NCBI GenBank assembly: GCA_030584065.1
Contig: CP129489.1
Coordinates: 3,510,235-3,574,234, forward strand
Source of the DNA: Flavobacteriales bacterium
Lineage (GTDB): Bacteria > Bacteroidota > Bacteroidia > Flavobacteriales_F > PHOS-HE28
Direction of reading: 5' to 3'
DNA length: 64,000 nucleotides
A program made the position numbers and the translations under genes. The notes below the pieces were generated by a model that had not been told where the DNA came from, did not search any database, and was given only the letters and a program-made list of their open reading frames with translations. Below are positions 1,931 to 62,467 of this stretch, piece by piece (position 1 is the stretch's first letter; every line of letters starts with the position of its first letter).

Positions 1931-4570
1931 ATGAAGGCCCGAATCCTGCTCCTGACCTCCGCCCTGCTGGGCCTGGAGGCTTCGGCCCAGTTGGTGGTGA
2001 ACACCGCGCAGACCCCTGCCCAGCTCGTGCAGGATGTGCTTCTCGGGAACGGGGTGCAGGCGTTCAATATTCGCTACAACGGGGTGCTCAGCCCCGGCAC
2101 GAACCAAGTGGGCAGCGGCTCGTTCACGGCCACCGGCACCAACCTGGGCATCGCCTCGGGCCTGATCCTGTCCAGCGGAGAGGTCTCGAACGCGGCAGGC
2201 CCGGCTTCCGATTTCTCGGGCGACTTCAATGGGACCGGCAGCGATCCTGACCTCGTGTCGATCTCCGGAGGCGTTATCAATGACCGCGCCGTCCTCGAGT
2301 TCGATTTCATCCCCACGGGTGACTCCTTGAAGTTCCGGTACGTGTTCGCCTCCGAGGAGTATCCGGAGTTCGTCTGCTCCTACAACGATGCCTTCGGCTT
2401 CTTCCTCAGTGGCCCCGGCATCAGTGGTCCGTACAGCGGAGGGGCCATCAACATCGCCTTGGTACCCGGCACCACCGTTCCCGTGACCATCGACAACGTG
2501 AACAATGGCTACAACAACGACCCCGCGGACCCGGCCTGCCCTGCATCCAACCCCGCCTACTATGTGAACAACAGCGCGGGCACCACCATCGCCTATGATG
2601 GGATGACCGTGGTGCTGCAGGCCTTCGCCTTGGTGCAGTGCGGTCAGCAGTACCACATCAAGCTGGCCTTGGGCGATGCGCTGGACAGCAGCTATGATAG
2701 CGCTGTGTTCCTGGAGGCGGGCTCCTTCACCAGCACCGGTCAGGTGGTGCCCACGCTGTCGAGCGGAGTGGGCATCATCGGCAATACGATGCTGGAGGGA
2801 TGCAATCCCATCGAGCTCGTCTTCACCCGGTTGGGCGACACCACCGTGGTGGATACGGTTGACCTGACCATCTCGGGGACTGCGACCCCCGGCGTGGATT
2901 ACACCCCCGCCTTCCCTGCCCAGCTCATCTTCCCCATCGGATCGGAGACGGTCAGCCTGGTACTCGACGTCCCCATCGATGCCGACGGTCCGGAGACCAT
3001 CGTCATCACCATCGACCAGCTCGTCGAATGCTCGGGAACCCAGTTGCAGACGCAGTTCGTGTTCAACATCGATAGCCCGCCGCCCCTGACGGTCACCGGT
3101 GCCGACATCAACAGCGTATGCGGGCAGAACAACACCTTGGCGCCGGTGGTGACCGGCGGCATGGGCCAGTACGGCTTTTCCTGGAGCACCGGGGAGACCA
3201 CGGCCACCATCGATGCATCACCCGTGGTGACGACCACCTATACGGTCACGGTCTCCGATGTCTGCGGAATCGCGCCCGTCTCGGCCGATTTCACGGTGAC
3301 ACTGCCCATCTACCCGCCGCTGGCCATCACCGTTTCGCCCGATACCCTTATTGATTGCCTCGGTACCGGTCCGATCAGCGTAACGGGTGCAACCGGCGGG
3401 AACAACGCCTTCTCGTACAGCTGGAGCCTTGCGGGCGTACCCATCGGCAATACCGCCACCATTACCGTGCCGGCTGGTCCGCCGCTCTACTACGTGGTAA
3501 CGGTCACCGAGGGCTGCGGCACGTCGGTTCAGGACAGCGTCCTCGTGGGCACCGTGCCCCTGCCCCCCATCGCCATCGAAACCGCCGGCGACCAGACCCC
3601 CATTTGCGCAGGCGACACGGTGACCTTGACGATCCTGGGCATCACCGGGGGCAACAGCGTCTACACGTGGAGCTGGACCGATGCTGACGGACAGGTGCTT
3701 GGGAACTCCTGGACCATCGATGTGCCGGTGCTCGGGAACCAGGCCTACACCATCAGTGTGGACGACCAATGCGGCTACACTGGCGCCGCCACCGTCTCCG
3801 CGCTGCTGCCCATCTATGACCCCTTCGTGCTGGAGCTCCCTGAAGACAAGGTGCTGTGCGCCGGTGATAGCGCCACCATCCATGCCATGGTCACGGGCGG
3901 CTCCGGCTACTACCACATCCTCTGGGCCGGCCCTGATAGCCTCACGGACCCGCTTTACTGGGTGAAGCCGGAGGAGGAGACCACGTACGGCGTGACCGTC
4001 CGCGACCAGTGCGGCGAGGAGCGCTCAGATGCGATGACCATCGAGGTGGAGCACGTCTCCACCGATATCGTGGTCACCAACCAGGGCCAGGACGATTGGT
4101 ACCTGCAGGCGGCCACCCTGCCCTATGCACGCACATGGGTGTGGGACATGGGCGATGGCACACGGTACCGGAATGATGAGGTCTACCATAGCTACTTGGA
4201 CCTGGAGGACCATTGGGTCAGCTTGAAGATCGTGACGCCGAACGGTTGCCTCGGTGAGGACTCCGTGCTTCTGCGCGCGCCGGCCCACATCCATTTCCCC
4301 AACGCGTTCACGCCCGATGGGGATGGCCGGAATGAGCTGTTCGGGCCCATCGGACACTACATCGAGGAGTTCGAGATGATGATCTTCGACCGCTGGGGCG
4401 AGCTGATCTTCACCACCCAGGACGTGAACGTCATGTGGGACGGCACCGTGAATGGCCGTGGTGAGGCGACCACCGGTGTCTACGTCTACAAATACCGCGC
4501 GGCGGGCCATTACTTCGAGCCCGTAGAGGGCATGGGTCATGTGACCCTGATCCGCGGAAGCCAGAACTGA
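1931..4570 (+). CDS. Large cell-surface protein with an N-terminal choice-of-anchor-L domain, SprB-type repeats and a T9SS type-B (gliding motility-associated) C-terminal sorting domain
   Basis: The internal ATG at 1931 gives the signal peptide MKARILLLTSALLGLEASAQ. N-domain motifs are RYVFASEEYPEFV, DAFGFFLSGPG and DSAVFLEAGSF. The middle carries about 8 SprB-like repeats (VCG...GG.G.Y.YSW..G). The C-terminus HFPNAFTPDGDGRNELF...YVYKY fits a type-B T9SS C-terminal domain. Confidence 0.8.
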   Translation: MKARILLLTSALLGLEASAQLVVNTAQTPAQLVQDVLLGNGVQAFNIRYNGVLSPGTNQVGSGSFTATGTNLGIASGLILSSGEVSNAAGPASDFSGDFNGTGSDPDLVSISGGVINDRAVLEFDFIPTGDSLKFRYVFASEEYPEFVCSYNDAFGFFLSGPGISGPYSGGAINIALVPGTTVPVTIDNVNNGYNNDPADPACPASNPAYYVNNSAGTTIAYDGMTVVLQAFALVQCGQQYHIKLALGDALDSSYDSAVFLEAGSFTSTGQVVPTLSSGVGIIGNTMLEGCNPIELVFTRLGDTTVVDTVDLTISGTATPGVDYTPAFPAQLIFPIGSETVSLVLDVPIDADGPETIVITIDQLVECSGTQLQTQFVFNIDSPPPLTVTGADINSVCGQNNTLAPVVTGGMGQYGFSWSTGETTATIDASPVVTTTYTVTVSDVCGIAPVSADFTVTLPIYPPLAITVSPDTLIDCLGTGPISVTGATGGNNAFSYSWSLAGVPIGNTATITVPAGPPLYYVVTVTEGCGTSVQDSVLVGTVPLPPIAIETAGDQTPICAGDTVTLTILGITGGNSVYTWSWTDADGQVLGNSWTIDVPVLGNQAYTISVDDQCGYTGAATVSALLPIYDPFVLELPEDKVLCAGDSATIHAMVTGGSGYYHILWAGPDSLTDPLYWVKPEEETTYGVTVRDQCGEERSDAMTIEVEHVSTDIVVTNQGQDDWYLQAATLPYARTWVWDMGDGTRYRNDEVYHSYLDLEDHWVSLKIVTPNGCLGEDSVLLRAPAHIHFPNAFTPDGDGRNELFGPIGHYIEEFEMMIFDRWGELIFTTQDVNVMWDGTVNGRGEATTGVYVYKYRAAGHYFEPVEGMGHVTLIRGSQN

Positions 4571-37100: not shown

Positions 37101-37719
37101 CGAACTCCACGCGGGCGAAGCCGGTCTCCTCTAGCCATTCCTGGAGCGTGTCGATGGGCAACTCCTCATTGCGCTTGACGGTGAGCGTGTTCTTCGCCAT
37201 CTCCTCCTTGCCGATCACGAGGGGGATGAGGGCATCGGGGTAGGTGACGATGATGAGTTTGTTGGTGAATGGTGAATGGGAGTTGGTGAATGGGGAATGC
37301 GCATCCGCGCCATTCGCCATTCGCCATTCACTATTCACCTTCATCAATGCCTCGAGCACCTCCGTGCGAGTCACCCGCTCGCCGTCATGGTGTCCTTCGG
37401 GATCGTAGGCCGAGCGTGAGGGTGCGGGGTAGAAGAACAGGTCCTCCTCCTTCTTCGCATGGCGCCCGTCCTTGTCCTTCCCGCGCAGCGCTTCGAGGTC
37501 ATTGAGGAAGTACGCAGCCTCCTCGCGGTCGGTGAGCACGAACACATGCACGCCGCCGCGCTGTTCGATCACGGCGTTGGCGATGAAGGCTTGCGACGAA
37601 CCGATGGTGCCGGCGATCTGCACGCGGGCGGCCTTCTCGCGCAGGGCATCGGCCACGCGAGCGACGCGGGCGTCTGAGCGGTAGAGGGAGAGGAGGTCGG
37701 GGAGGGAGGTGATGGACAT
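34171..37719 (-). CDS. mfd: Transcription-repair coupling factor
   Basis: The internal ATG gives MSITSLPDLL. UvrB-like N-domains, a TRG/TRCF region, helicase motif I GDVGFGKTEV and a C-terminal D7 domain; 1183 aa. Confidence 0.9.
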   Translation of the reverse strand: MSITSLPDLLSLYRSDARVARVADALREKAARVQIAGTIGSSQAFIANAVIEQRGGVHVFVLTDREEAAYFLNDLEALRGKDKDGRHAKKEEDLFFYPAPSRSAYDPEGHHDGERVTRTEVLEALMKVNSEWRMANGADAHSPFTNSHSPFTNKLIIVTYPDALIPLVIGKEEMAKNTLTVKRNEELPIDTLQEWLEETGFARVEFVYEPGQYSIRGGIVDVFSYGSDKPYRIELYGDTVESVRRFDPQDQLTVERLAEAVIVPDLQDEDAARQQTFFAQLPEDTVLWLRDLQAIGDAAKKQLKLLSEAYERLPDKDKHPTPNELLATDTELIKGTLGFRKVFWAAGHGLRASGSSTVEPEARGPQPVAMNSQPGAELIDFQQRPQPTFAKEFKVLSGDLHNKQNAGYTNLIACNSAKQSERLYAIFNDMEHEVAFTPLVLDLHEGFIDPELKLALYTDHQIFERYHRFRLKEGFRKNAQALTLKELTQLKPGDLVVHIDHGIGVFSGLETIDAGGSKQEAIRLKYRDNDILYVGIHSLHRVSKYSGEEGGKAPNISKLGTPAWKNLKEKTKAKVKALAFDLIKLYAQRKSKPGFAYQPDNYLQHELEASFIYEDTPDQLKATQDVKRDMEKATPMDRLVCGDVGFGKTEVAIRAAFKAACDGKQVAVLVPTTILALQHWKSFSNRMKGLPVRVDYINRFRTSAQQTQILKDLKEGKIDILIGTHRLVSKDVVWKDLGLMIIDEEQKFGVNVKDKLKTIRANVDTLTLTATPIPRTLQFSLMGARDLSIISTPPPNRYPVSTMLQPYDEVTIRGAIEYELSRGGQVYFLHDKVKNIEHIADMIRKLVPGCRVGVGHGQLEGHKLEEVMLDFIEGNTDVLVCTTIVENGLDIPNANTIIVNEAQNFGLSDLHQLRGRVGRSNKKAYCYLLAPSPHLLPDLSRKRLQAIEQFSDLGSGIHIAMKDLDIRGAGDLLGAEQSGFINDIGFETYHKILEEAVRELKDEHFKELFADAQEGSHALARGSRRDQSDDCIIETDLTMLIPNSYVSETAERLALYRRLDDIKDEAELQMFTAEITDRFGPIPPLVNELLEGIRLRWLGQRMGLEKMVLKKGTLIGTFIADQKHPFFEGDGFNAVLRAVQAQPRRFKVYEKAGTLRISVQDVKNVHAAKEAMEIVVGTQVPA
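37264..37339. repeat. Imperfect inverted repeat built from GAATGG heptamer-like units, inserted in-frame in mfd
   Basis: GGTGAATGGTGAATGGGAGTTGGTGAATGGGGAATGC gc ATCCGCGCCATTCGCCATTCGCCATTCACTATTCACC. It encodes ...EWRMANGADAHSPFTNSHSPFTNK... in the mfd reading frame. Confidence 0.6.
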
Positions 37720-48815: not shown

Positions 48816-49715
48816 TCAATCCCCCTCCTCCAGGATGGCCAGCACGCGGTCCGGATAGTCGCTGATGATGCCTTGGACGCCGAGGGCGGCCATGCGGCGG
48901 ATGTCATCGGGCTCATTCACGGTCCATACCACCAGCTGGATGCCGCGCTCCCGCAGCTTACGGGTGAGGGCCTCGTCCGCCTGGCTGAAATGCGGGCTGT
49001 AGATGGCAGGGTCGAAGGGCAGCCGTTGCAGGTTGGCCTCCAGGCCATCCGTGTTCTCCACGAGGAGGGCGAGCGTGATGTCGGGCTCCGCGGCATGCAC
49101 GGCTTGGAGCACGGAAGGGTCGAACGATTGGATGATGCAGCGGTCGGTGATGCCGAGGGAATCCACCGCGGCGAGGACCAACCGGGCCAATTCCGGCGGC
49201 GGGGGCTGATAGGTGCCGTAGAGGGCGGGGTCGCTCTTGATCTCGATGTTGAATCCGGGGCTGCCGCTGCCCAGGAGGGCAGCCTCCTCCACCGCCTCCA
49301 CCACCTCGCGCAGCGTGGGCTTGTGGGCGCGCCGCTGCTCCTGCTCCGGGAATCCGGGATGCTCGAGGCCGCCGCAGTCGTAGGTGCGGATCTCCGCCGC
49401 CGTCATGCGGTAGAGGTTGTGCTGCCGCTCCTCGGCTTCCGTGATGGCCTCGCCGCGGGGGCCGGTGCAGATCAGGTGGCTCATCCAGGGCTCGTGCGAG
49501 ACCACCACCTGGCTGTCTGCACTCACCACCACATCGAGTTCCAGCCAGTCGACTCCCAGCTCGGCGGCCTTGAGGAAGCCGGGCACCGTGTTCTCGGGCA
49601 GCAGGCCCCGGCAGCCACGGTGTCCGTGGACCTCAGGGCGGGCGGGGGTGGCGGGCATGCAGGAGTGGAGGAGGGCGGCGATGAGCAGGGCCGCCGGGGT
49701 TTCAGCCTTGGCCAT
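48816..49715 (-). CDS. Glycerophosphodiester phosphodiesterase family protein (exported)
   Basis: GDPD motifs HGHRGCRGLLPENT. N-terminal hydrophobic segment with a possible lipobox LHSC. Confidence 0.8.
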   Translation of the reverse strand: MAKAETPAALLIAALLHSCMPATPARPEVHGHRGCRGLLPENTVPGFLKAAELGVDWLELDVVVSADSQVVVSHEPWMSHLICTGPRGEAITEAEERQHNLYRMTAAEIRTYDCGGLEHPGFPEQEQRRAHKPTLREVVEAVEEAALLGSGSPGFNIEIKSDPALYGTYQPPPPELARLVLAAVDSLGITDRCIIQSFDPSVLQAVHAAEPDITLALLVENTDGLEANLQRLPFDPAIYSPHFSQADEALTRKLRERGIQLVVWTVNEPDDIRRMAALGVQGIISDYPDRVLAILEEGD

Positions 49716-50649
49716 TCGGGAATGCGTGGATGATCTTGTCGGCGAGCACCTCGGCCATCTTCAGCTTGCCTTCGTGCGTCACTCCGGCGATGTGCGGCGT
49801 CAGCAGCACGCGGTCATGGCCGAGGAGCCGGCGCTGGGTGGCAGGGTCGATGGCGGGGTCGAGTCCGGAGAGGTCGGGCCGCTCGAATTCGAGCACGTCG
49901 AGGCCTGCGGCGATCACGCGGCCATGATCGATGGCATCGAGCAGCGCAGCGGTGTGCACCACGGCCCCGCGCGACGTGTTGAGGAACCAGATGGGCCTGC
50001 CCAGGCGGAGGAAGAAGCCGCGGTCGGCGAAGTGGTGCGTCTCCGGGGTCAGCGGCAGGTGCAGGCTGATGACGTCGCTCTCGCGCAGCACGCGCTCCAG
50101 CCCGCACTCGTGCACCCCGGCGCGCTCGAAACCGCTGCGGTACTTGTCGTGCGCCAGCACGCGCACCCCGAATCCGCGCAGCTTGTCGGCGAAGGCGCTG
50201 CCCATGTGGCCGTAGCCGATGATGCCCACGGTCTTGCCGCGCAGGTCGGTGCCGCGGTTCTCCTCGCGCAGCCAAAGGCCGGCATGCACCTGGTTGTTGG
50301 CGCGCACCAGCGCCTTCATCAGCGCCAGCAGCAGCATCACGCAGGCTTCGCCCACGCCATCGCGGTTGCCCTCCGGCGAGTTCATCACCTGGATGCCGTT
50401 CCTGCGGCACCAGGCGGTATCGATGTTCTCCAGCCCGCTGCCCACGCGCGCCACGAAGCGGAGCCCGTCGATGCGGGCGAGCAGGCTGCCTTCCAGGCGG
50501 CGGCTGCGGACCACGATGCCCCGCATGCCCTGGAGCGCTTCCGCCAGCCGCGCATCATCCACCTGGTGGAGCATCACCGCCTCGTGCCCCGCCCGGGTGA
50601 GCAGCTCGGCCAGGCGGGGGTGCGCATTGTCGATGAATCCGATGCGCAT
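49702..50649 (-). CDS. D-isomer-specific 2-hydroxyacid dehydrogenase family protein
   Basis: NAD-binding motif GKTVGIIGYGHMGS; catalytic R/E/H triad context. Confidence 0.85.
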   Translation of the reverse strand: MRIGFIDNAHPRLAELLTRAGHEAVMLHQVDDARLAEALQGMRGIVVRSRRLEGSLLARIDGLRFVARVGSGLENIDTAWCRRNGIQVMNSPEGNRDGVGEACVMLLLALMKALVRANNQVHAGLWLREENRGTDLRGKTVGIIGYGHMGSAFADKLRGFGVRVLAHDKYRSGFERAGVHECGLERVLRESDVISLHLPLTPETHHFADRGFFLRLGRPIWFLNTSRGAVVHTAALLDAIDHGRVIAAGLDVLEFERPDLSGLDPAIDPATQRRLLGHDRVLLTPHIAGVTHEGKLKMAEVLADKIIHAFPNGQG

Positions 50650-50653
50650 GGGT

Positions 50654-52048
50654 TCAGAGCATGAGGCCGGCCAGCAGCACGGAGGCGATGCCGAAGTAGA
50701 TGAGCAGGCCCGTCACGTCCACCACGGTGGCCACGAAGGGCGCCGAGGAGACAGCGGGGTCGCGTCCCAGGCGCTTCAGCACGAGCGGGAAGAGGGAGCC
50801 GATGAGGTTGCCCCAGAGCACCACGCCCAGCAGGGAGATGCCCACCGCAAGGCCCACCTGCAGCCAGTGCTCGCCGTACACGGTCACGAACTGGCTCCAC
50901 AGGGCCACGCGCAGGAAGCCGATGATGCCGAGCACCGTGCCCAAGGTGAGCCCCACGGTGAATTCGCGCTTCACCACGCTCCACCATTCGCGGATGGAGA
51001 CGTCGCCCAGGGCCAGTGCCCGGATGATGAGCGTGCTGGCCTGCGAGCCGGTGTTGCCGCCGCTGCTGATGATCAGCGGCACGAAGAGCGCCAGCACCAC
51101 CGCCTTGGCGATCTGGTCCTCGAAGAAGCTCATGGCCGTGGCCGTGAAGCTCTCGCCCACGAAGAGGATGATGAGCCAGCCCACTCGCTTCTTCACGATG
51201 TCGAGCCAGGTGCTGCTCATGTAGCTGTCCTCCAGCGCCTCCATGCCCGCCATCTTCTGGGCGTCCTCCGTCTCCTCCTCGCGGATCACGTCCACCACGT
51301 CGTCGATGGTGATGCGGCCCACGAGGCGGCCGCGCCCGTCCAGCACGGGCAGCGCCACCAGGTCGTATTTCTCCATGAGCCGGGCGGCCACCTCGGCGTC
51401 CTCGTCGGCACGCACGCTGATGAAGTCCGGCTCGTACACGTCCTTCACCGGCTGGAAGAGCGAGGTGGTGAGCAGCTTCTTCAGGGGGATGATGCCCACC
51501 AGCCGCTCATGCTGGTCCACCACGTAGATCGCATAGGGGTTGTCGATCTCCTCCCCGTGGGCCCGCAGCTCCTTCACGCAATCGCGCATGCGCCCCTCCA
51601 CGCTCACCCGGATGAGCTCCTTGGCCATGAGCCCCCCGGCGCTGTGCTCGTCGTAGGCCAGCAGCTCGGCGATCTCTTCGCGCTGTTCGGCGTCCTCGAT
51701 GTTGGCCATCACCTCCTCCTGCACGTCCTCCGGCAGGTCGGCGATCACGTCGGCGGCATCGTCGCTGTCCAGCTGGTCGATCACCTCCTCGGCGATCTCC
51801 TTGCCGGTGTAGGTGCCCAGGATGGCCTCGCGCTTGTCCTCCGGAAGCTCCAGCAGCACCTCGGCCGCCAGCTCCTCGCCCAGGGCATCATACAGCGTGT
51901 TGGCCTCCTCGGGGCGCAGCTGGTCCAGCACCTCCGCGATATCCGCCGGATGCATCTCCGACAGGTCGGCCACGATGGCCTGCGCACGGCCGTTCTCCAG
52001 GCCCTCGCGGATCCGTTCGAGCAGGGGCTTGGTGACATCGAAGGCCAT
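50654..52048 (-). CDS. mgtE: Magnesium transporter MgtE
   Basis: The internal ATG gives MAFDVTKPLLERI. MgtE N-domain, CBS pair and MgtE TM domain. Confidence 0.9.
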   Translation of the reverse strand: MAFDVTKPLLERIREGLENGRAQAIVADLSEMHPADIAEVLDQLRPEEANTLYDALGEELAAEVLLELPEDKREAILGTYTGKEIAEEVIDQLDSDDAADVIADLPEDVQEEVMANIEDAEQREEIAELLAYDEHSAGGLMAKELIRVSVEGRMRDCVKELRAHGEEIDNPYAIYVVDQHERLVGIIPLKKLLTTSLFQPVKDVYEPDFISVRADEDAEVAARLMEKYDLVALPVLDGRGRLVGRITIDDVVDVIREEETEDAQKMAGMEALEDSYMSSTWLDIVKKRVGWLIILFVGESFTATAMSFFEDQIAKAVVLALFVPLIISSGGNTGSQASTLIIRALALGDVSIREWWSVVKREFTVGLTLGTVLGIIGFLRVALWSQFVTVYGEHWLQVGLAVGISLLGVVLWGNLIGSLFPLVLKRLGRDPAVSSAPFVATVVDVTGLLIYFGIASVLLAGLML

Positions 52049-52091
52049 GGCGGGTGCCCCGGCCTGATGGCGGTTGCGGAGCCGCGCGAAA

Positions 52092-52310
52092 TTAGGCCTT
52101 CGGAGCCTGCTCAATGGCCCGCGTCAGCGCGATGAAGTCCGCCACGCTCAGCTGCTCGGCGCGCCTGCCCGCAAATTCAGCCGGCGGGGCGCCGGTCAGC
52201 TCCGGCAGCGGCTTCAGCGCATTGCGCAGGGTCTTGCGCCGCTGGTTGAAGGCGGTCTTCACCACCCGGAAGAAGAGCGCTATCGCATGGCAACCGCTGC
52301 GCGCCAGTGG
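52092..52310 (-). pseudogene. Remnant 3' fragment of rsmA/ksgA (encodes only the C-terminal ~60 residues), left next to mgtE
   Basis: The translation ...ALFFRVVKTAFNQRRKTLRNALKPLPELTGAPPAEFAGRRAEQLSVADFIALTRAIEQAPKA matches the C-terminus of the intact ksgA at 56790-57560. There is no N-terminal methyltransferase domain. Confidence 0.75.
52104..52282. repeat. Direct repeat, left copy (179 bp, about 98% identical to 56793-56971)
   Basis: Aligned by eye: identical except 3 mismatches (cagctg vs caattg; caaatt vs catatt). The offset is exactly 4689 bp. Confidence 0.8.
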
Positions 52311-52447
52311 TGGAGGGGTCTTATTGGCCATGGGTAGCCGCCTCCTCATCTCGTTCATACCCGCCCTTCAGCGCAGTCCGCAGGTTGGAGGCTGCGATCG
52401 TGCTCGCCATGATCAGCCCAGGGTGGCGCCGCATCGGGGTCCACGGC

Positions 52448-53905
52448 TTACCGCACCAGGATCTTGGCGGAACGGCGGTCCCGCTCACGGGTAGCATGCA
52501 CGAAGTACACGGCGGGACCCGCGCGGGGCAGAGAGAACGTGGTGCGCAACCGCACAGCGGGCAGCGTGAGCACGGTTTGCCCGAGCGCATTCAGGATGTC
52601 GAGCCGCCATGGATGCGCGTCGGGAAGGTCGGCGACCCATGTGGTGCCCCCATCGATGGTGCTGCAGGACAATGCGGAACCTCCCTGCGGCGAAGCGCCG
52701 ATGCCCGTGCCTCCCCCCGGCAGCGCGCCCAGGTATTGGGCCACCTGGTTGATCGGCTGGCCGTCGATCTGGTCGAATCCGCCGCAGATGTACAGGCTGT
52801 CACGCCAGAAGGCCATGTCGCGGATGCGGGCCAGGTCGGGCACCAAGGGGTGCGGGGTGTGGAATGTGCCCGGCAACCCGCTCCATTGGCTGCCGTCCCA
52901 GATGGCCAGCCCGCCATTGAGGGCCTGGCCGCCGGCGTGGTCGAAGACTCCGCCCACGTAGAGGTGGCCATGGTGCCATTTCATGCGCATGGCCGTTGCT
53001 CCGCCGGCCTCTGCCAGATAGGCCAACCCTCCGCCCATGTCGCTCCAGCTCTGGCCATCGAATGCAGCTACCAAGTTGCCGGGCGCGCCGGTGCTCTGCT
53101 TGAAGGTGCCGCACACGTAGAGCACGTCATCGTGGATGAGCACATCACGGATGTGGTAGGCGTTGCCCCAGCCGGGCACGTATTCCCATTCAGATCCATT
53201 GAACCGCATGAAGTACCTGATGCCAGGCCCTATCGGATTCTGGAATCCACCGGTCATGTAGGTCATGCCTTGGAATTCGAACACATAACCCACATAGTCG
53301 CCATTGTCCGGTGCCGGAGGGATCTGCCCCCAGGGCTCCCACTCGTGGAAGGCGCTGCCATCGTAGCGGTACACGCAGGCCTCGGGGTAGCCGCAGAGGC
53401 TCTCGGAGTAGCCGGTGGCGTACATGCTGGTGGCGCCCGGGGTCTTCTGCACCAGCGTATTCAGGCCGCTCATGGCCGGGTTGATGCACTCGAGTGCCTC
53501 CCAGCGCTGGGTGGCCTCGTTCAGGCGGGCGAATGAGGTATTCCACGTCCCTTGATCGGTCATGAATGTGTAGCCTCCGCAGGAGTAGAGTTCATCTTGG
53601 AACCGGAGGAACCAGAAGGTCTGTTGGGCGCTCCCGCCACCAATGGGTTGTATGCGGTGTGCCAAACTATCCCAGCGCATGCCGTCCCAGGCGGCCTGAC
53701 CCACGCAGAGCACCGTGTCGCTCTGATTCAGGATGTACATGAACGTGCCACCAGCGAGCAACCGGTTGCTCACAGAATCCCCGAATAGGGTCTGCACCTC
53801 CAGGTGATTCAAGGTGCCGCGTCCACAGGCCTTCCAGTTGGGCTGGGCAAGCGCTGCAATGGTGCCCAGCCAACCTAATCCCAGGAGAACCAGACCGCGT
53901 CTCAT
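52448..53905 (-). CDS. Secreted beta-propeller (Kelch-like repeat) protein with T9SS type-A C-terminal sorting domain
   Basis: Signal peptide MRRGLVLLGLGWLGTIAALAQ. Repeated ...GG.F....G......A.WDG..W..LG... blades. C-terminus ...AVYFVHATRERDRRSAKILVR. ATGA overlap with the upstream gene. Confidence 0.75.
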   Translation of the reverse strand: MRRGLVLLGLGWLGTIAALAQPNWKACGRGTLNHLEVQTLFGDSVSNRLLAGGTFMYILNQSDTVLCVGQAAWDGMRWDSLAHRIQPIGGGSAQQTFWFLRFQDELYSCGGYTFMTDQGTWNTSFARLNEATQRWEALECINPAMSGLNTLVQKTPGATSMYATGYSESLCGYPEACVYRYDGSAFHEWEPWGQIPPAPDNGDYVGYVFEFQGMTYMTGGFQNPIGPGIRYFMRFNGSEWEYVPGWGNAYHIRDVLIHDDVLYVCGTFKQSTGAPGNLVAAFDGQSWSDMGGGLAYLAEAGGATAMRMKWHHGHLYVGGVFDHAGGQALNGGLAIWDGSQWSGLPGTFHTPHPLVPDLARIRDMAFWRDSLYICGGFDQIDGQPINQVAQYLGALPGGGTGIGASPQGGSALSCSTIDGGTTWVADLPDAHPWRLDILNALGQTVLTLPAVRLRTTFSLPRAGPAVYFVHATRERDRRSAKILVR

Positions 53906-56616
53906 CGCCTAGCAAGCTTAGCGTGAAGGGAGCTGCCCGATGCGCTAACTGCGCGTACCACATATAGACCGGCCGCGTGCGGTGAAAGGTCGAGCACATG
54001 TTGCTGCCGGGCTTCCTCCGCCAAGGTGACTTCGCGTCCCGCTGCATCGAACACCTGGATTACCCAGGTCTCATCGTCAGGCAGGCTCGCCATCCAAGCG
54101 CTCTGTGCAAACGGTGTCAGTAGCAGGGTGCCTTGCATCTGCGCAGGCATGGCCGCCTCAGGCAGGCCCACGGACAGTTGCGCACCGAAGCTGGAGATGA
54201 AGCCATCGTGCGGGGTGCTCAACAATTCCGGATACGCGATCGTGGTGAACTCATGATCCATGGCAGCCGAGAACTGATAGAAGGGCACCATCGATATGCT
54301 GGTGTTGCCGCCCAGGTTCCAATCCTGGTAAAGGTCCAGGTCGTTGTTGGGGTCGAAATCCCAGAGCGGGAACGCATCGGTCTGCTGGGAGGCGGTGGCG
54401 CCCACCAGGTACACCTCCGTGGCTGATGCGGCAATACCCCAACCACGGTCGCTCTGCACGCCGCCGAATGCGCTGCGCCATAGCATGGCTGGTGCCGGTT
54501 GGTCCGCCAGCGAGAGGATGATGGCATCGCGCCGGTTCCAGTAATCGTTCTGATCCTGATAGTAGTAGCTGCTGTTGATGTCGGTACTGAAGCCCTCGGC
54601 GCTGCGCGTCTCGCCGGTGATGAACACGCGGCTATCGTCGTGGCTGTTCACGTCCAGCAGCACATCGTCGCGCAGCCCCCCGATGAGCGTGCCGTAGTTG
54701 AGGTCGAAGGGCGCCAAATGGAAGCGCAGGATGAAGCCATCCGCTCCCTGGCCGTAGGTGGTGCCCGCATGGCTCTGGCTGTGATGCACGCCTGACCCGT
54801 CCGGATGGGGACAATGATCCTTGGTGAGCTCCGTATCGGTGGTATAGCCCACCACCCAGAGCGATTTGCTCGTGAGTTCAAGGCCGTATGCCTCCGCCAG
54901 CCAATCGCCCCAGCGTGTGCAGTATTCTACTTGGTACTGGTTGTTGATGTCGATGCGGGCGATCATGGCCGAAGGCCCATTCGAGCTGGATTGGAAGAAG
55001 GCGCCGGGCAATGATTGCGTATCCAGCGCGCTGCCCGTTCCTGTGGAACTGGTGCCTGTCAACCAGATGACCTTCTTGCCCGAACCCGGCACAGGCGCGA
55101 TGCGCAGGTCGGTCACCTTGGTGTAGGCATCTTCCGGATCGTATTCACCGAAGGTGGTGGCCCATTCGATGTCGTAGTCCGCATCGAACACGATGAAGAA
55201 GCCGCCGCCAACGGCGCGGCTGAATGCGCCCGTGGGGGTGACAAGGGGGAAATCGGGCGTAGAGGCCCCCATGATGCTGAAGGTCTCGATCTGCCCGCCC
55301 ACCACCACCTGGCCCGTGGGGTCCACATCGATGGCCAGGCCATGCTCGCTCCAGCTCACCTCACCGGATTGCCCGTGGGTGGTGGCCCAATCGCGTATGC
55401 CGTTCTCTTTCCTGAATGCACCGACCCACATGCGCATGGTGCCGCCATCATAAGCCTCCGCAAATGCATCTGTGAAAACAGAGGAAGGGTCTGTATAGGG
55501 CAAGAAATCCGTGCAATTGGTGCTCCCCGTCACGAACACATGATCTACGCTGCTCTCTTCAGTGGCATCCACCGCCAGTTTGTGCGCCTTGGTGCGCGCG
55601 CTCCACTTGCCCCCGTCGTAGCCACCGTAATAGGTGGCCCATTGGGTCACTTTATCGGAAGCACGCACCTTCATGATCACCGCGCTCCACCAGCCTGCGG
55701 GTTCGCTGATGAAGGGGGTATGTTCCGTGTAGCCTACTGCAATGGGGAAATAGGTGCCAGTCACATAACCGCAGGCGTAGGGGTTGCCCTGCTCATCCAC
55801 TTCCACGCACTCCAGTTCATCGCCGCCCTGGCCGCCCGCGTAGGTGCTCCAGTTGAGGTTGCGCTGCTCGGGGCCGCCGCCCATCATGGCAGGCGGGTAT
55901 CCGATCTGCAGGATCAAGGGCCAGGCGGGGTTGTAGCTCTCATACTCGAAGCCCACGGTGAAATTGCCCGGCTCTACCACGTAGTCCGCCGTCCAGTTCA
56001 CGGGAACGACCTGGCCGTTGCCGTTGACTTGAAAGGCGAGTGCTTGATCCAGCTTGACCCACTTGTCCGCGAGATGGACCTTCAGCGCTCCTAGCCAATC
56101 GACTTTGATGCTGTCCTGCCCGGTGAAGCTCAGCTTCACATCGGCCGGGGTTCCGCCGGGCCGGATGACGATGGCCATGCGGGGCCCCGTGCTTCCATAG
56201 TAGTAATGGATATCCGTTTTCTCCCAGGCTTCTTCGTACACGACGCGTTGGTGTCCTTCCACCCCTTCCGCTGAGAATGATCCGAGATAATAATTGGTGA
56301 CGCCTTCCAAGGCCGGGCCCACCGGAACCGGGTCCACCTCCTTGTCGCCCATGAGCATGTCGATCCGGTAGAGGGTATCCGTGGTGGTGCTGTCGTGGTG
56401 CAAGGCGGCCAGGGTGTAACTCACCAGGCTCTTGTTCCGCAGGAAGATCCCGATGGGGGTCCGCTCATAGTAGTAGGCGCAATCCGCCAAGGGTGTACCG
56501 TCGGTGCGCAGCACCTGCCCGGCATGCTGCCGCAGTGGCGTGAAGCCGTGACCGGCATCCCCATACGGATCGGGCGGCACATATACTTGGGCGCTAACCC
56601 CGGACACTCCTGCCAA
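53902..56616 (-). CDS. Large secreted SBBP-type beta-propeller repeat protein with T9SS type-A C-terminal sorting domain; 5' end displaced from its ATG by a heptanucleotide repeat
   Basis: SBBP-like repeats (YAGGQGGDELECVEVDEQGNPYACGYVTG; YYGGYDGG...HVFVTGST). C-terminus ...LYVVRAVSASGSSLHAKLARR. The track start 56616 is TTG. The signal-peptide-like sequence RWRLTQALQCLLLAGVSGVSAQ continues upstream in the same frame with no ATG; the only ATG (56708) is in the +1 frame. Confidence 0.75.
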   Translation of the reverse strand: MAGVSGVSAQVYVPPDPYGDAGHGFTPLRQHAGQVLRTDGTPLADCAYYYERTPIGIFLRNKSLVSYTLAALHHDSTTTDTLYRIDMLMGDKEVDPVPVGPALEGVTNYYLGSFSAEGVEGHQRVVYEEAWEKTDIHYYYGSTGPRMAIVIRPGGTPADVKLSFTGQDSIKVDWLGALKVHLADKWVKLDQALAFQVNGNGQVVPVNWTADYVVEPGNFTVGFEYESYNPAWPLILQIGYPPAMMGGGPEQRNLNWSTYAGGQGGDELECVEVDEQGNPYACGYVTGTYFPIAVGYTEHTPFISEPAGWWSAVIMKVRASDKVTQWATYYGGYDGGKWSARTKAHKLAVDATEESSVDHVFVTGSTNCTDFLPYTDPSSVFTDAFAEAYDGGTMRMWVGAFRKENGIRDWATTHGQSGEVSWSEHGLAIDVDPTGQVVVGGQIETFSIMGASTPDFPLVTPTGAFSRAVGGGFFIVFDADYDIEWATTFGEYDPEDAYTKVTDLRIAPVPGSGKKVIWLTGTSSTGTGSALDTQSLPGAFFQSSSNGPSAMIARIDINNQYQVEYCTRWGDWLAEAYGLELTSKSLWVVGYTTDTELTKDHCPHPDGSGVHHSQSHAGTTYGQGADGFILRFHLAPFDLNYGTLIGGLRDDVLLDVNSHDDSRVFITGETRSAEGFSTDINSSYYYQDQNDYWNRRDAIILSLADQPAPAMLWRSAFGGVQSDRGWGIAASATEVYLVGATASQQTDAFPLWDFDPNNDLDLYQDWNLGGNTSISMVPFYQFSAAMDHEFTTIAYPELLSTPHDGFISSFGAQLSVGLPEAAMPAQMQGTLLLTPFAQSAWMASLPDDETWVIQVFDAAGREVTLAEEARQQHVLDLSPHAAGLYVVRAVSASGSSLHAKLARR

Positions 56617-56670
56617 CAGTAAGCATTGGAGAGCTTGTGTCAGACGCCACCTGCCCTTGCCCCTGTCCTG

Positions 56671-56705
56671 CGTTCTGCGTTCTGCGTTCTGCGTTCTGCG
56701 TTCTG
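56671..56705. repeat. Heptanucleotide tandem repeat (CGTTCTG)x5 (minus-strand CAGAACG) between the ATG and the signal-peptide-coding frame of the T9SS cargo gene
   Basis: Five perfect 7-nt units, read directly from the sequence. Confidence 0.85.
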
Positions 56706-56736
56706 CATGGTTACAGGAATTGGATAGGTGAAGCTA

Positions 56737-56755
56737 ATGCGCTTGCGCAACGCAT
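56737..56755. repeat. Small imperfect palindrome ATGCGCTTGCGCAACGCAT in the ksgA/cargo-operon intergenic region
   Basis: The core TTGCGCAA is perfectly palindromic, flanked by ATGCG/CGCAT. It lies 35 bp downstream of the ksgA stop and upstream of the cargo gene ATG. Confidence 0.4.
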
Positions 56756-56789
56756 CCAAAGGCTGTTGAAAAGTCGAGGCGATGGCGGG

Positions 56790-57560
56790 TCAAGCCTGCT
56801 CAATGGCCCGCGTCAGCGCGATGAAGTCCGCCACGCTCAATTGCTCGGCGCGCCTGCCCGCATATTCAGCCGGCGGGGCGCCGGTCAGCTCCGGCAGCGG
56901 CTTCAGCGCATTGCGCAGGGTCTTGCGCCGCTGGTTGAAGGCGGTCTTCACCACCCGGAAGAAGAGCGCTTCATCGCAAGGCAGCCGCTCCACCCTGTTG
57001 CGCTTCATGCGGATCACGCTGCTGCGCACCTTGGGCGGCGGTATGAAGCTGCCGGGCTCCACATGGAAGAGCAGCTCCACATCATAATAGGCCTGGGCCA
57101 GCACGCTGGTGATGCCGTAGGTCTTGCTGCCGTGGGGCGCGCGGATGCGGTCGGCCACCTCTTTCTGGAACATGCCCACAAGCTCGGTGCACCGGTCGCG
57201 GTGCTCCAGCACCTTGAAGACGATCTGCGTGCTGATGTTGTAGGGGAAATTGCCCGCCACAGCGAATCGGCCTTCGGTCACGCCGTCCGGATCCATGCGG
57301 AGGAAGTCCTCCTCGCGCACGTCGATGCCGGGGTATTGCGCGCGCAGGTAGTGCACCGATTCACGGTCGACCTCGAAGCAGGTGGTGGTGAAGGCCTTGC
57401 GCGCGAGCAAGTGCTTGGTGAGCGCACCGGTGCCGGGCCCCACCTCGATCACGGTGGTGTAGCCGCCGTGACCGGTTAGGCCATCGGCAATGCGCTGCGC
57501 GATGCCGTCCTCCTTGAGGAAATGCTGGCCGAGATGCTTCTTCGGGGTTACCGCGTGCAT
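56790..57560 (-). CDS. rsmA: 16S rRNA (adenine1518-N6/adenine1519-N6)-dimethyltransferase
   Basis: MHAVTPKKHLGQHFLKEDGIAQRI..., a SAM-binding motif (VIEVGPGTGALT) and a KsgA C-terminal domain. ATG at 57560 (the track's first M is GTG). Confidence 0.9.
   Translation of the reverse strand: MHAVTPKKHLGQHFLKEDGIAQRIADGLTGHGGYTTVIEVGPGTGALTKHLLARKAFTTTCFEVDRESVHYLRAQYPGIDVREEDFLRMDPDGVTEGRFAVAGNFPYNISTQIVFKVLEHRDRCTELVGMFQKEVADRIRAPHGSKTYGITSVLAQAYYDVELLFHVEPGSFIPPPKVRSSVIRMKRNRVERLPCDEALFFRVVKTAFNQRRKTLRNALKPLPELTGAPPAEYAGRRAEQLSVADFIALTRAIEQA
56793..56971. repeat. Direct repeat, right copy (inside the 3' end of the intact ksgA)
   Basis: See the left copy at 52104-52282. Confidence 0.8.
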
Positions 57561-61954: not shown

Positions 61955-62467
61955 TTACTTCGAATCGTCCTTCTTGGCGGCCTTCTTCGGGGCGGCTTTC
62001 TTGGCAGCGGCCTTCTTGGCCGGAGCGGCTTTCTTGGCGGCGGCCTTCTTGGCAGGGGCAGCCTCCTTGGCGGCGCTCTTCTTGGCCTTGGGCTCGGCGG
62101 CCTTCACCGCCTTGGGAGCGGGAGCGCTGCTCTTGCTGGCGTCGAACTTCTCGCCCTTGCCCAGGATGGCCTCGATCCACAGTTCCGTGAGGTACTGGCG
62201 GTGGCCGTTCATCTTCTGGTAGCCCTTGCGGCGCTTCTTCTTGAATACCAGAACCTTGTCGCCCTTGCCATGGCTCAGCACCTTGGCGGCGATGCGGACG
62301 CCCTCCACCGTGGGGGTGCCCACGCTCACGGTCTTGCCGTCGCTCACGAGCAGCACCTTATCCAGCTCCACGTGCTTGCCTTCCTCGGCTTCGAGGCGGT
62401 GCACCTTCAGCTTCTGGGCCTGCTCAACCTTGTATTGCTGGCCGGCGATATCGACAATGGCGTACAT
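61955..62467 (-). CDS. rplU: 50S ribosomal protein L21 with a Lys/Ala-rich (histone H1-like) C-terminal extension
   Basis: The internal ATG gives [27 protein letters not shown]. The C-terminal about 65 residues are AKKAAP/AAKKAA repeats. Confidence 0.85.

Follow-up and report, generated by a model that had tools for sequence, protein, structure and literature searches.

An old insertion of a secreted-protein operon between ksgA and mgtE in a Flavobacteriales bacterium, with a ksgA gene-end scar that gene conversion appears to keep alike

How does a pair of genes for secreted proteins come to stand between ksgA and mgtE, and why is it bounded by two almost identical copies of the ksgA 3' end? 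The question is raised by a 64,000-nt stretch of contig CP129489.1 from a Flavobacteriales bacterium, here called the window; coordinates are window positions, all genes discussed lie on the minus strand, and related loci and contigs are given by L numbers. A preliminary description of this 4.7-kb islet had read it as a recent site-specific element that targets the ksgA 3' end and brings its own copy of that end. Our analysis points to another answer: the islet probably arose by an ancient insertion through general or illegitimate recombination, which left a gene-end scar that is now under concerted evolution. The features on which the argument turns are as follows.

56790-57560, minus strand: rsmA/ksgA, intact 16S rRNA dimethyltransferase gene (TIGR00755, 232 bits; PF00398), TGA at 56790-56792
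56793-56993, minus strand: right repeat copy, functional, the last ~59-67 codons of ksgA; core differences from the left copy at 56863, 56841 and 56840
52104-52298, minus strand: left repeat copy, a dead ksgA 3' remnant with a 2-bp deletion at 52281/52282 and degenerate homology possibly to ~52305
52092-52358, minus strand: open reading frame (ORF) of 88 codons that holds the remnant
52087-52103, minus strand: original ksgA tail (..PKA, TAA at 52092-52094), overlapping a TAATTTCG box (52087-52094); aligned with the empty sites L092, L095, L013, L021 and L022
50654-52048, minus strand: mgtE (PF01769, PF03448, CBS), the ancestral downstream neighbour of ksgA

A repeat search of the window returned one standout direct repeat, 52104-52281 and 56793-56970, of 178 nt with 98% identity and 3 mismatches, whose copies start 4689 bp apart; this is the near-identical 179-bp pair of the preliminary description. 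When the copies were aligned by blastn and MAFFT, as had been proposed there, the homology stretched a further ~20 nt inward, to 52298/56993, and the extended repeat comprised ~197 columns with 5 mismatches and one gap, the 2-bp deletion in the left copy. No third ksgA-3' copy and no cargo paralogue was found within the window. The right copy completes the intact ksgA, whose exact protein is present on 10 public contigs. The left copy matched positions 192-255 of the TIGR00755 model, i.e., its last 64 positions, in a profile search. The functional gene ends in ...AIEQA followed by TGA, and the remnant reads on as ...AIEQAPKA to its own TAA, 43 nt ahead of the mgtE ATG at 52048. Both copies therefore have the roles first assigned to them, a functional gene end and a remnant adjoining mgtE.

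That the repeat might be an assembly duplication had been left as a possibility, and several short-read contigs do terminate inside or near the region. However, both copies are carried by two independent assemblies, L082 (JGI 3300006417) and L090 (JGI 3300048839), the inner junction from the propeller (Kelch-like) gene through the remnant to mgtE is spanned in two more, L097 and L081, and the copies differ at fixed positions. An artefact is thus refuted for practical purposes, and we give it next to no credence.

The order TPR-ksgA-mgtE-dehydrogenase was found in 20 GTDB species representatives of related Flavobacteriales metagenome-assembled genomes (MAGs), with a ksgA-mgtE gap of 37-244 bp, and in about 40 further Bacteroidota metagenome loci the two genes are separated by 2-200 bp. 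The genus-level relatives L092 and L095, whose KsgA and MgtE are 82-84% and 84-88% identical to those of the window, are also empty, with a gap of 37-39 bp. More than 60 related loci thus have ksgA directly beside mgtE, which makes the 4.7 kb an insertion into an ancestral ksgA-mgtE junction, as had been supposed. The 3' end of the L092 ksgA aligned to both window copies, and the alignment with the left copy ran on without a break into mgtE; the tail of the left copy and the TAATTTCG box match the sequence upstream of mgtE at empty sites. The left copy is thus the displaced original end of ksgA, again in agreement with the preliminary description. The comparison of empty with occupied sites that it had called for gave a divided result: empty sites occur in other species (L092, L095), but all of the ~12 conspecific contigs are occupied. 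A metagenome scan with MgtE yielded few close relatives, and only L097 and L098 exceeded 68% identity.

The insertion is old. The entire arrangement is present in L090, which is 97.9% identical to the window at the nucleotide level over 14 kb. It can also be recognised in L178 (Logan SRR28758106), a conspecific-level contig with mgtE 97-99% identical in nucleotides to that of the window and cargo genes at ~80% (78% and 82% in amino acids). Between its propeller gene and mgtE, L178 has at the same position a colinear spacer, ~58% identical to that of the window, and a ksgA-3' remnant. This remnant lacks the 2-bp deletion and is 66% identical to ksgA. The identity of third codon positions between the window and L178 was 61-65% in the cargo and 93% in mgtE. 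Because the remnant has diverged as far as the third positions of the cargo, the scar predates the split of the two cargo haplotypes and has drifted neutrally in L178. Another species, GCA_964548485.1 (KsgA 85% identical; contigs L091 and L177), has the insertion as well. In L091, ksgA is followed by a colinear orthologue of the first cargo gene (57% amino acid identity), and L177 carries SBBP/type IX secretion system (T9SS) genes, a propeller orthologue (63%), 139 bp and then mgtE, with only a vestige of ksgA-like sequence before mgtE.

The spacer that L178 shares with the window has the following position.

52305-52447, minus strand: spacer between the propeller gene and the remnant, carrying the original insertion junction

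Local alignment of 52299-52447 with ksgA was no better than with shuffled sequences, and a longer hidden ksgA remnant in this interval was rejected at that level. RNA families, terminators and a notable RNA fold were sought in the spacer, and none was found.

If the insertion is old, the near identity of the repeat needs a cause other than youth. Variable sites were tabulated for both repeat copies in the window, L082, L097 and L090, and L178 and the relationships among the strains supplied the polarity. The ancestor shared by the window, L082 and L090 had two copies that did not differ over their central 168 nt, and every difference between them lay at one of the two edges. The identical centre and diverged edges would be the trace of an older, longer conversion tract. 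Two clusters of three sites were later switched to the state of the functional copy, one (52110/52112/52113) in the window only and the other (52293/52299/52301) in L082 and L097 only; such triple, adjacent and directed switches would be short conversion tracts. At the three core mismatches, 56863, 56841 and 56840, the functional copy of L090 and all left copies keep the other state, which the outgroups L091 and L092 share at 56841/56840; 56863 is uninformative (T in L091, A in L092). By this polarity, the derived state at all three mismatches belongs to the functional copy of the window/L082 lineage. The pattern, as read from these alignments, indicates that the functional copy, through gene conversion, keeps the scar nearly identical to itself over its central ~170 nt, a form of concerted evolution. 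In keeping with this, the orthologous duplicate has decayed where conversion did not act, namely in the 66% remnant of L178. Copies that convert each other do not date their own duplication, and the inference of a recent event from 98% identity falls with the presence of the same insertion in L178 and L091/L177.

If the window lineage had acquired its insert recently and conversion had played no part, the remnants of L178 and L177 being left by older, independent insertions at the same hotspot, the repeat identity of 97-98% would follow directly, and independent insertions of T9SS genes at the ksgA 3' boundary in L001 and L017 (see below) show that this boundary is hit repeatedly. Against this reading, the window and L178 have homologous spacers and junctions in colinear arrangement, and a conversion tract explains better than a uniformly young age why the copies in the ancestor of the strains had an identical centre and differed only at the edges. 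Point mutation would hardly produce two triple switches to the state of the paralogue, each confined to one lineage, and the repeat edges hint that the left copies of the window clade nest within L178-type remnants outside the converted tract. We regard a recent insertion as quite unlikely.

Recombination at the locus was also visible in the cargo. In the alignment of L178:1-4719 with window 51011-55752, the boundary of divergence lies at the mgtE 5' end, which suggests that in L178 the conserved flanks enclose a haplotype of the islet that is ancient or was imported. Compared with the window, L090 has sharply bounded patches of 70-90% identity at ~55360-55660 and 52810-53410, in both cargo genes, and is 99-100% identical elsewhere; the patch in the propeller gene is somewhat nearer to the L178 allele. 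These patches, judged by their boundaries, point to mosaic recombination among multiple alleles. The divergent L178 allele together with the L090 patches implies that recombinational exchange at the locus is active. A mosaic ksgA with an imported 3' half was considered and rejected; sliding identity to L091, L092, L095 and L093 showed no L091-like block.

Is the islet, then, a site-specific element? Integrative and conjugative elements (ICEs), integrative and mobilizable elements (IMEs) as well as cis-mobilizable elements (CIMEs) are known to integrate in the 3' end of protein genes, among them fda, rpsI, rpmG and rplL, and streptococcal CIMEs of 1.2-13 kb occur at such ends (PMC7563491). The islet resembles these elements and the islands in tRNA and tmRNA genes in that direct repeats of the target 3' end bound the insert and the gene is regenerated, here by the outer copy. 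If it were a decayed, non-autonomous element of the CIME type, the ksgA-3' copies would be its attL and attR sites, with the integrase lost or acting in trans; the empty sites in other species and a cargo GC below that of the flanks would suit such an origin. However, no recombinase, integrase or other mobility gene was found in the cargo, as already noted in the preliminary description, or within 10 kb on either side (L082, L083, L090 and the window species), where the flanks are housekeeping genes. No version of the islet contained a recombinase, and 0 of 80 related loci had a second ksgA-3' copy. Searches also revealed no tandem ICE or IME beside the islet and no match of the cargo DNA in plasmid and phage collections. 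The islet lacks an integrase, a relaxase and a short identical att core: the repeat is ~200 nt long, is degenerate at both edges and carries the 2-bp indel. Its left copy is not conserved in other lineages where conversion is absent, being 66% identical in L178 and vestigial in L177, and there is no conspecific empty site among ~12 contigs. The make-up of the cargo varies by lineage, L177 having an extra 333-aa gene and a duplicated mgtE 5' end.

The second location of the operon bears on the same point. The same gene pair with the same ATGA overlap was found in another genome (L180-183), between ctaA and a 171-aa gene, and no ksgA-like flank accompanied the operon at this ctaA locus. The element thus does not bring its own copy of the ksgA end. 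Taken together, a recent ksgA-3'-targeting element is not supported, and we consider a decayed CIME-like element highly improbable.

We favour instead a route through the general recombination machinery. A self-contained two-gene operon, with its own promoter, a heptanucleotide switch and the DUF7948/SBBP and propeller genes, would have entered between ksgA and mgtE long ago, in an ancestor of this Flavobacteriales lineage, and no site-specific recombinase would have been involved. The simplest route would be a single crossover in which the ksgA 3' end of the chromosome recombined with an incoming fragment that carried a ksgA 3' end ahead of the operon and was circularised or illegitimately joined at one end. 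Such a crossover would necessarily duplicate its anchor of ~200-235 nt. The copy joined to the body of ksgA would stay functional, and the original end would be stranded by mgtE as a pseudogene scar. Afterwards the copies would have recombined repeatedly, so that the scar was conserved by conversion here and decayed at the neutral rate in the sister haplotype. What is found, a duplicated flanking gene end in the range of ~0.1-1 kb bounding DNA without mobility genes, is what such a scar should look like.

There are known counterparts. In E. coli, trimmed and recircularised DNA integrates by a single crossover and duplicates 109-950 bp of the anchor, and true events of homology-facilitated illegitimate recombination (HFIR) are rarer and yield deletions (PMC3240628; HFIR: de Vries & Wackernagel 2002 and Prudhomme et al. 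2002, as cited there). The islet shares with these Campbell-type and HFIR systems the one-sided homology to a resident gene, the lack of mobility genes and the direct duplication of the anchor. It differs in that its event was natural and ancient, with neither the donor nor the junction microhomology recoverable, and classical HFIR, unlike the islet, usually deletes recipient DNA instead of duplicating it. For type VI secretion system (T6SS) effector-immunity and Rhs arrays, an HFIR-like mechanism has been proposed for displaced 'orphan' gene ends (PMC5361080). There, as here, modules recombine at a conserved upstream gene and the old 3' end is pushed downstream in the absence of an integrase. 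However, the displaced piece of the islet is the end of a housekeeping gene and not of a variable toxin gene, and the islet shows only one displacement, which is conserved by conversion.

The same product could be formed by a long target-site duplication at a staggered break or by a replication template switch. In the staggered-break scheme, nicks ~220 nt apart, one of them 12 nt before the original ksgA stop, would have been filled in to give the duplicate, and a fortuitous TGA would have closed ksgA. The shared sequence indeed stops exactly one codon before the new TGA while the left copy runs 3 codons further, and no donor with ksgA adjoining the operon is needed. Without a transposase, bacteria rarely form target duplications of ~200 nt, which counts against the scheme, and the present data do not tell its product from that of a single crossover. 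We think it unlikely that the islet arose in this way.

Several points weigh against the single-crossover account with later conversion. The account requires that conversion went on continuously in one haplotype but not in the other. The evidence from L178 comes from a single 4.7-kb short-read contig that ends before ksgA. No donor with the operon after ksgA and without the duplication was found, and the illegitimate junction is too decayed to show microhomology. In addition, the tree of occupied and empty species was star-like at ~81% amino acid identity, the clade of the window and L092 having 43-49% bootstrap support, so that one old insertion with later precise loss is not separable from horizontal spread by flank homology. 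Loss of the insert in L092 by recombination between the repeats would be precise, and spread of the islet by flank homology would be the alternative.

The operon itself, the cargo of the islet, comprises the following features.

56729-56760, minus strand: operon promoter of the Bacteroidota type, TTTG (56757-56760), 20 nt, TAGCTTCA (56729-56736)
56668-56708, minus strand: start codon (56706-56708) and (GCAGAAC)5 tract; in the window the ATG is out of frame with the DUF7948 ORF
53902-56709, minus strand: DUF7948/SBBP-type protein (PF25778, E=1e-19) with a weak T9SS C-terminal domain (PF18962, E=0.0056; TIGR04183, E=9e-4)
52448-53905, minus strand: 485-aa secreted protein, a beta-propeller plus a beta-sandwich at the C-terminus; start and upstream stop overlapping as ATGA

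The TTTG-N20-TAGCTTCA element would be the operon's own promoter. The same architecture stands upstream of the orthologue in L180, and L091 has a similar TTTG-N20-TTTACCTTCA.

The lead gene had been described as encoding an SBBP-repeat protein of 904 aa. The ORF is indeed of the SBBP type, but it is part of a 930-aa gene whose ATG, in the window, lies in another frame; the open frame there has no in-frame ATG, and its only internal start is a TTG at 56616. The type-A T9SS C-terminal domains ascribed to both proteins are in a similar position: homologues and a structure model support them, but the direct matches are below threshold, TIGR04183 giving the DUF7948 protein 19.2 bits where the cutoff is 23, and no T9SS C-terminal domain matched the 485-aa protein. 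For the latter, only sub-threshold Kelch, Rax2 and DUF5122 matches were obtained. Its AlphaFold model (34 homologues, pLDDT 88.5) is all-beta, with a propeller at 24-391, a linker and a beta-sandwich at 413-484, and the best PDB match of the model was PorZ, a T9SS surface component (E=8e-10). It has ~100 homologue clusters, several of them named T9SS type A sorting domain protein, and the homologues of the DUF7948 protein either have clear PF18962 or SBBP matches or are named in this way. The C-termini of the two cargo proteins are homologous to each other, and their signal peptides were read by eye. From the homologues and the structure model, both proteins probably carry T9SS sorting domains.

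The GC content of the cargo, which had been called indistinguishable from that of the flanks, was 0.61 against 0.66-0.71; for the part from 53200 to 56600 the deficit is ~6 GC points. In L180, too, the orthologous operon has a deficit of ~5 GC points relative to its flanks, and the low value may thus reflect the genes themselves and not a recent arrival from a foreign source.

The heptamer tract behind the start codon is the best perfect short-period array in the window (5.6 copies, 100% match, TRF). Its positions in the loci compared are as follows.

56668-56708 in the window
L082:7093-7130
L091:6753-6815
L180:5243-5280

With three units, as in seven contigs (L082, L083, L085-L089), the ATG is in frame and opens the 930-aa protein with a plausible signal peptide. 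With four (L081, L090) or five (the window), it is out of frame, and the gene of the window is OFF; in L084, a scaffold N-gap lies inside the tract. The 57%-identical orthologues carry (CTCAACG)n at the same place, with 8 copies and an in-frame ATG in L091 and 4 copies and an out-of-frame ATG in L180-182. The tract is thus a perfect repeat in the 5' coding region, its unit is not divisible by 3, and its copy number toggles the frame among near-identical genomes, which are the marks of a contingency locus. The DUF7948/T9SS gene is probably subject to phase variation by slipped-strand mispairing. Simple sequence repeat (SSR) contingency loci are known from Haemophilus, Neisseria and Campylobacter (PMC2651432, PMC3315296, PMC6321876), where, as here, a perfect non-triplet repeat just past the start codon of a surface or secreted gene toggles the frame by its copy number. 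The present case differs from these in its setting, a T9SS cargo operon in an environmental (activated-sludge) Flavobacteriales MAG, and in that the unit sequence differs among orthologues of the islet while its position is conserved. A literature search found no report that combines T9SS with SSR phase variation.

The ksgA/mgtE boundary has received other inserts. In L177, a 90-nt direct repeat (2709-2798 and 4447-4536, 81% identical) of the promoter-proximal region and 5' end of mgtE flanks the propeller gene and is, as far as the alignment goes, a second gene-end duplication scar at the same locus. L001 (5341-7050, compared with L093:10747-10787) has a different T9SS propeller gene, 24% identical, at the ksgA 3' end; this insert replaces the last ~40 nt of ksgA with no duplication and has a similar promoter (TTTTCAACA...GCATTAGCTTCACCT). 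L017 (10787-13234) carries a T9SS CotH gene between ksgA and mgtE, and 1.6 kb is inserted at the ksgA 3' boundary in L108. The boundary therefore looks like an insertion hotspot for T9SS cargo genes. It might even be a dedicated site of cassette exchange, at which promoter-bearing, phase-variable T9SS modules are swapped through gene-end homology handles and conversion keeps the ksgA-3' duplicate similar because insertion or excision takes place there, perhaps by a recombinase encoded elsewhere. In favour of this idea, at least three lineages have T9SS insertions here (L001, L017 and the window clade), L177 has the second gene-end duplication, and very divergent cargo alleles sit between near-identical flanks; as a whole we judge it very unlikely.

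On the mgtE side, a TAnnTT(C/T)G-like box (TAATTTCG, TAGCTTCG, TAGTTTCG or TATCTTGG) is conserved at or a few nucleotides from the ksgA stop, upstream of mgtE (L005-L022, L092, L095). The TAATTTCG box is probably the Bacteroidota -7 promoter element of mgtE. In that case the end of ksgA and the mgtE promoter overlap, and this overlap may favour keeping a copy of the ksgA end next to mgtE. Two types of MgtE, with ~40% and 65-70% identity to that of the window, occupy the same ksgA-mgtE-dehydrogenase position in different Flavobacteriales clades (L002-L008 and others versus L009, L012, L013, L017, L018, L021 and L022), and the neighbouring genes follow another order of similarity. The values of 40% and 67% for two groups of GTDB representatives had suggested that mgtE was replaced by a xenologue; this was rejected because the genus-level L092, L095 and L177 have 84-88% identical mgtE at the same place.

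Farther out, mgtE is followed by one more gene of the conserved order.

49702-50649, minus strand: 2-hydroxyacid dehydrogenase

Beyond ksgA lie DUF4286 and then a TPR protein. The 10-kb flanks hold SAM synthetase, L21, L27, SerRS, TPR and DUF4286 on one side and MgtE, the dehydrogenase, GDPD, TetR and an ABC transporter on the other. The L21 gene of the window is unusually long (170 aa), and its 3' part contains a 15/33-nt tandem repeat at 61976-62087 (GGCGGCCTTCTTGGC on the plus strand; Lys/Ala-rich on the coding strand). At 37263-37336, imperfect heptamer arrays, (TGGTGAA)n and (CGCCATT/TTCACC)n, form a facing inverted repeat in a locally AT-richer sequence.

A new class of ksgA-targeting elements would deserve attention, but what the evidence favours is an old recombination scar of the ordinary sort. 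The lesson, one of method, is that the identity of repeats flanking an insert is no clock when the repeats convert each other: one and the same scar has 97% identity in one haplotype and 66% in another. Repeat switching is well known in host-adapted pathogens, but we came across no account of it in T9SS cargo from environmental Bacteroidota. For the activated-sludge Flavobacteriales population, the locus is a hypervariable islet for secreted or surface beta-propeller proteins, the lead gene of which is apparently switched by its heptamer.

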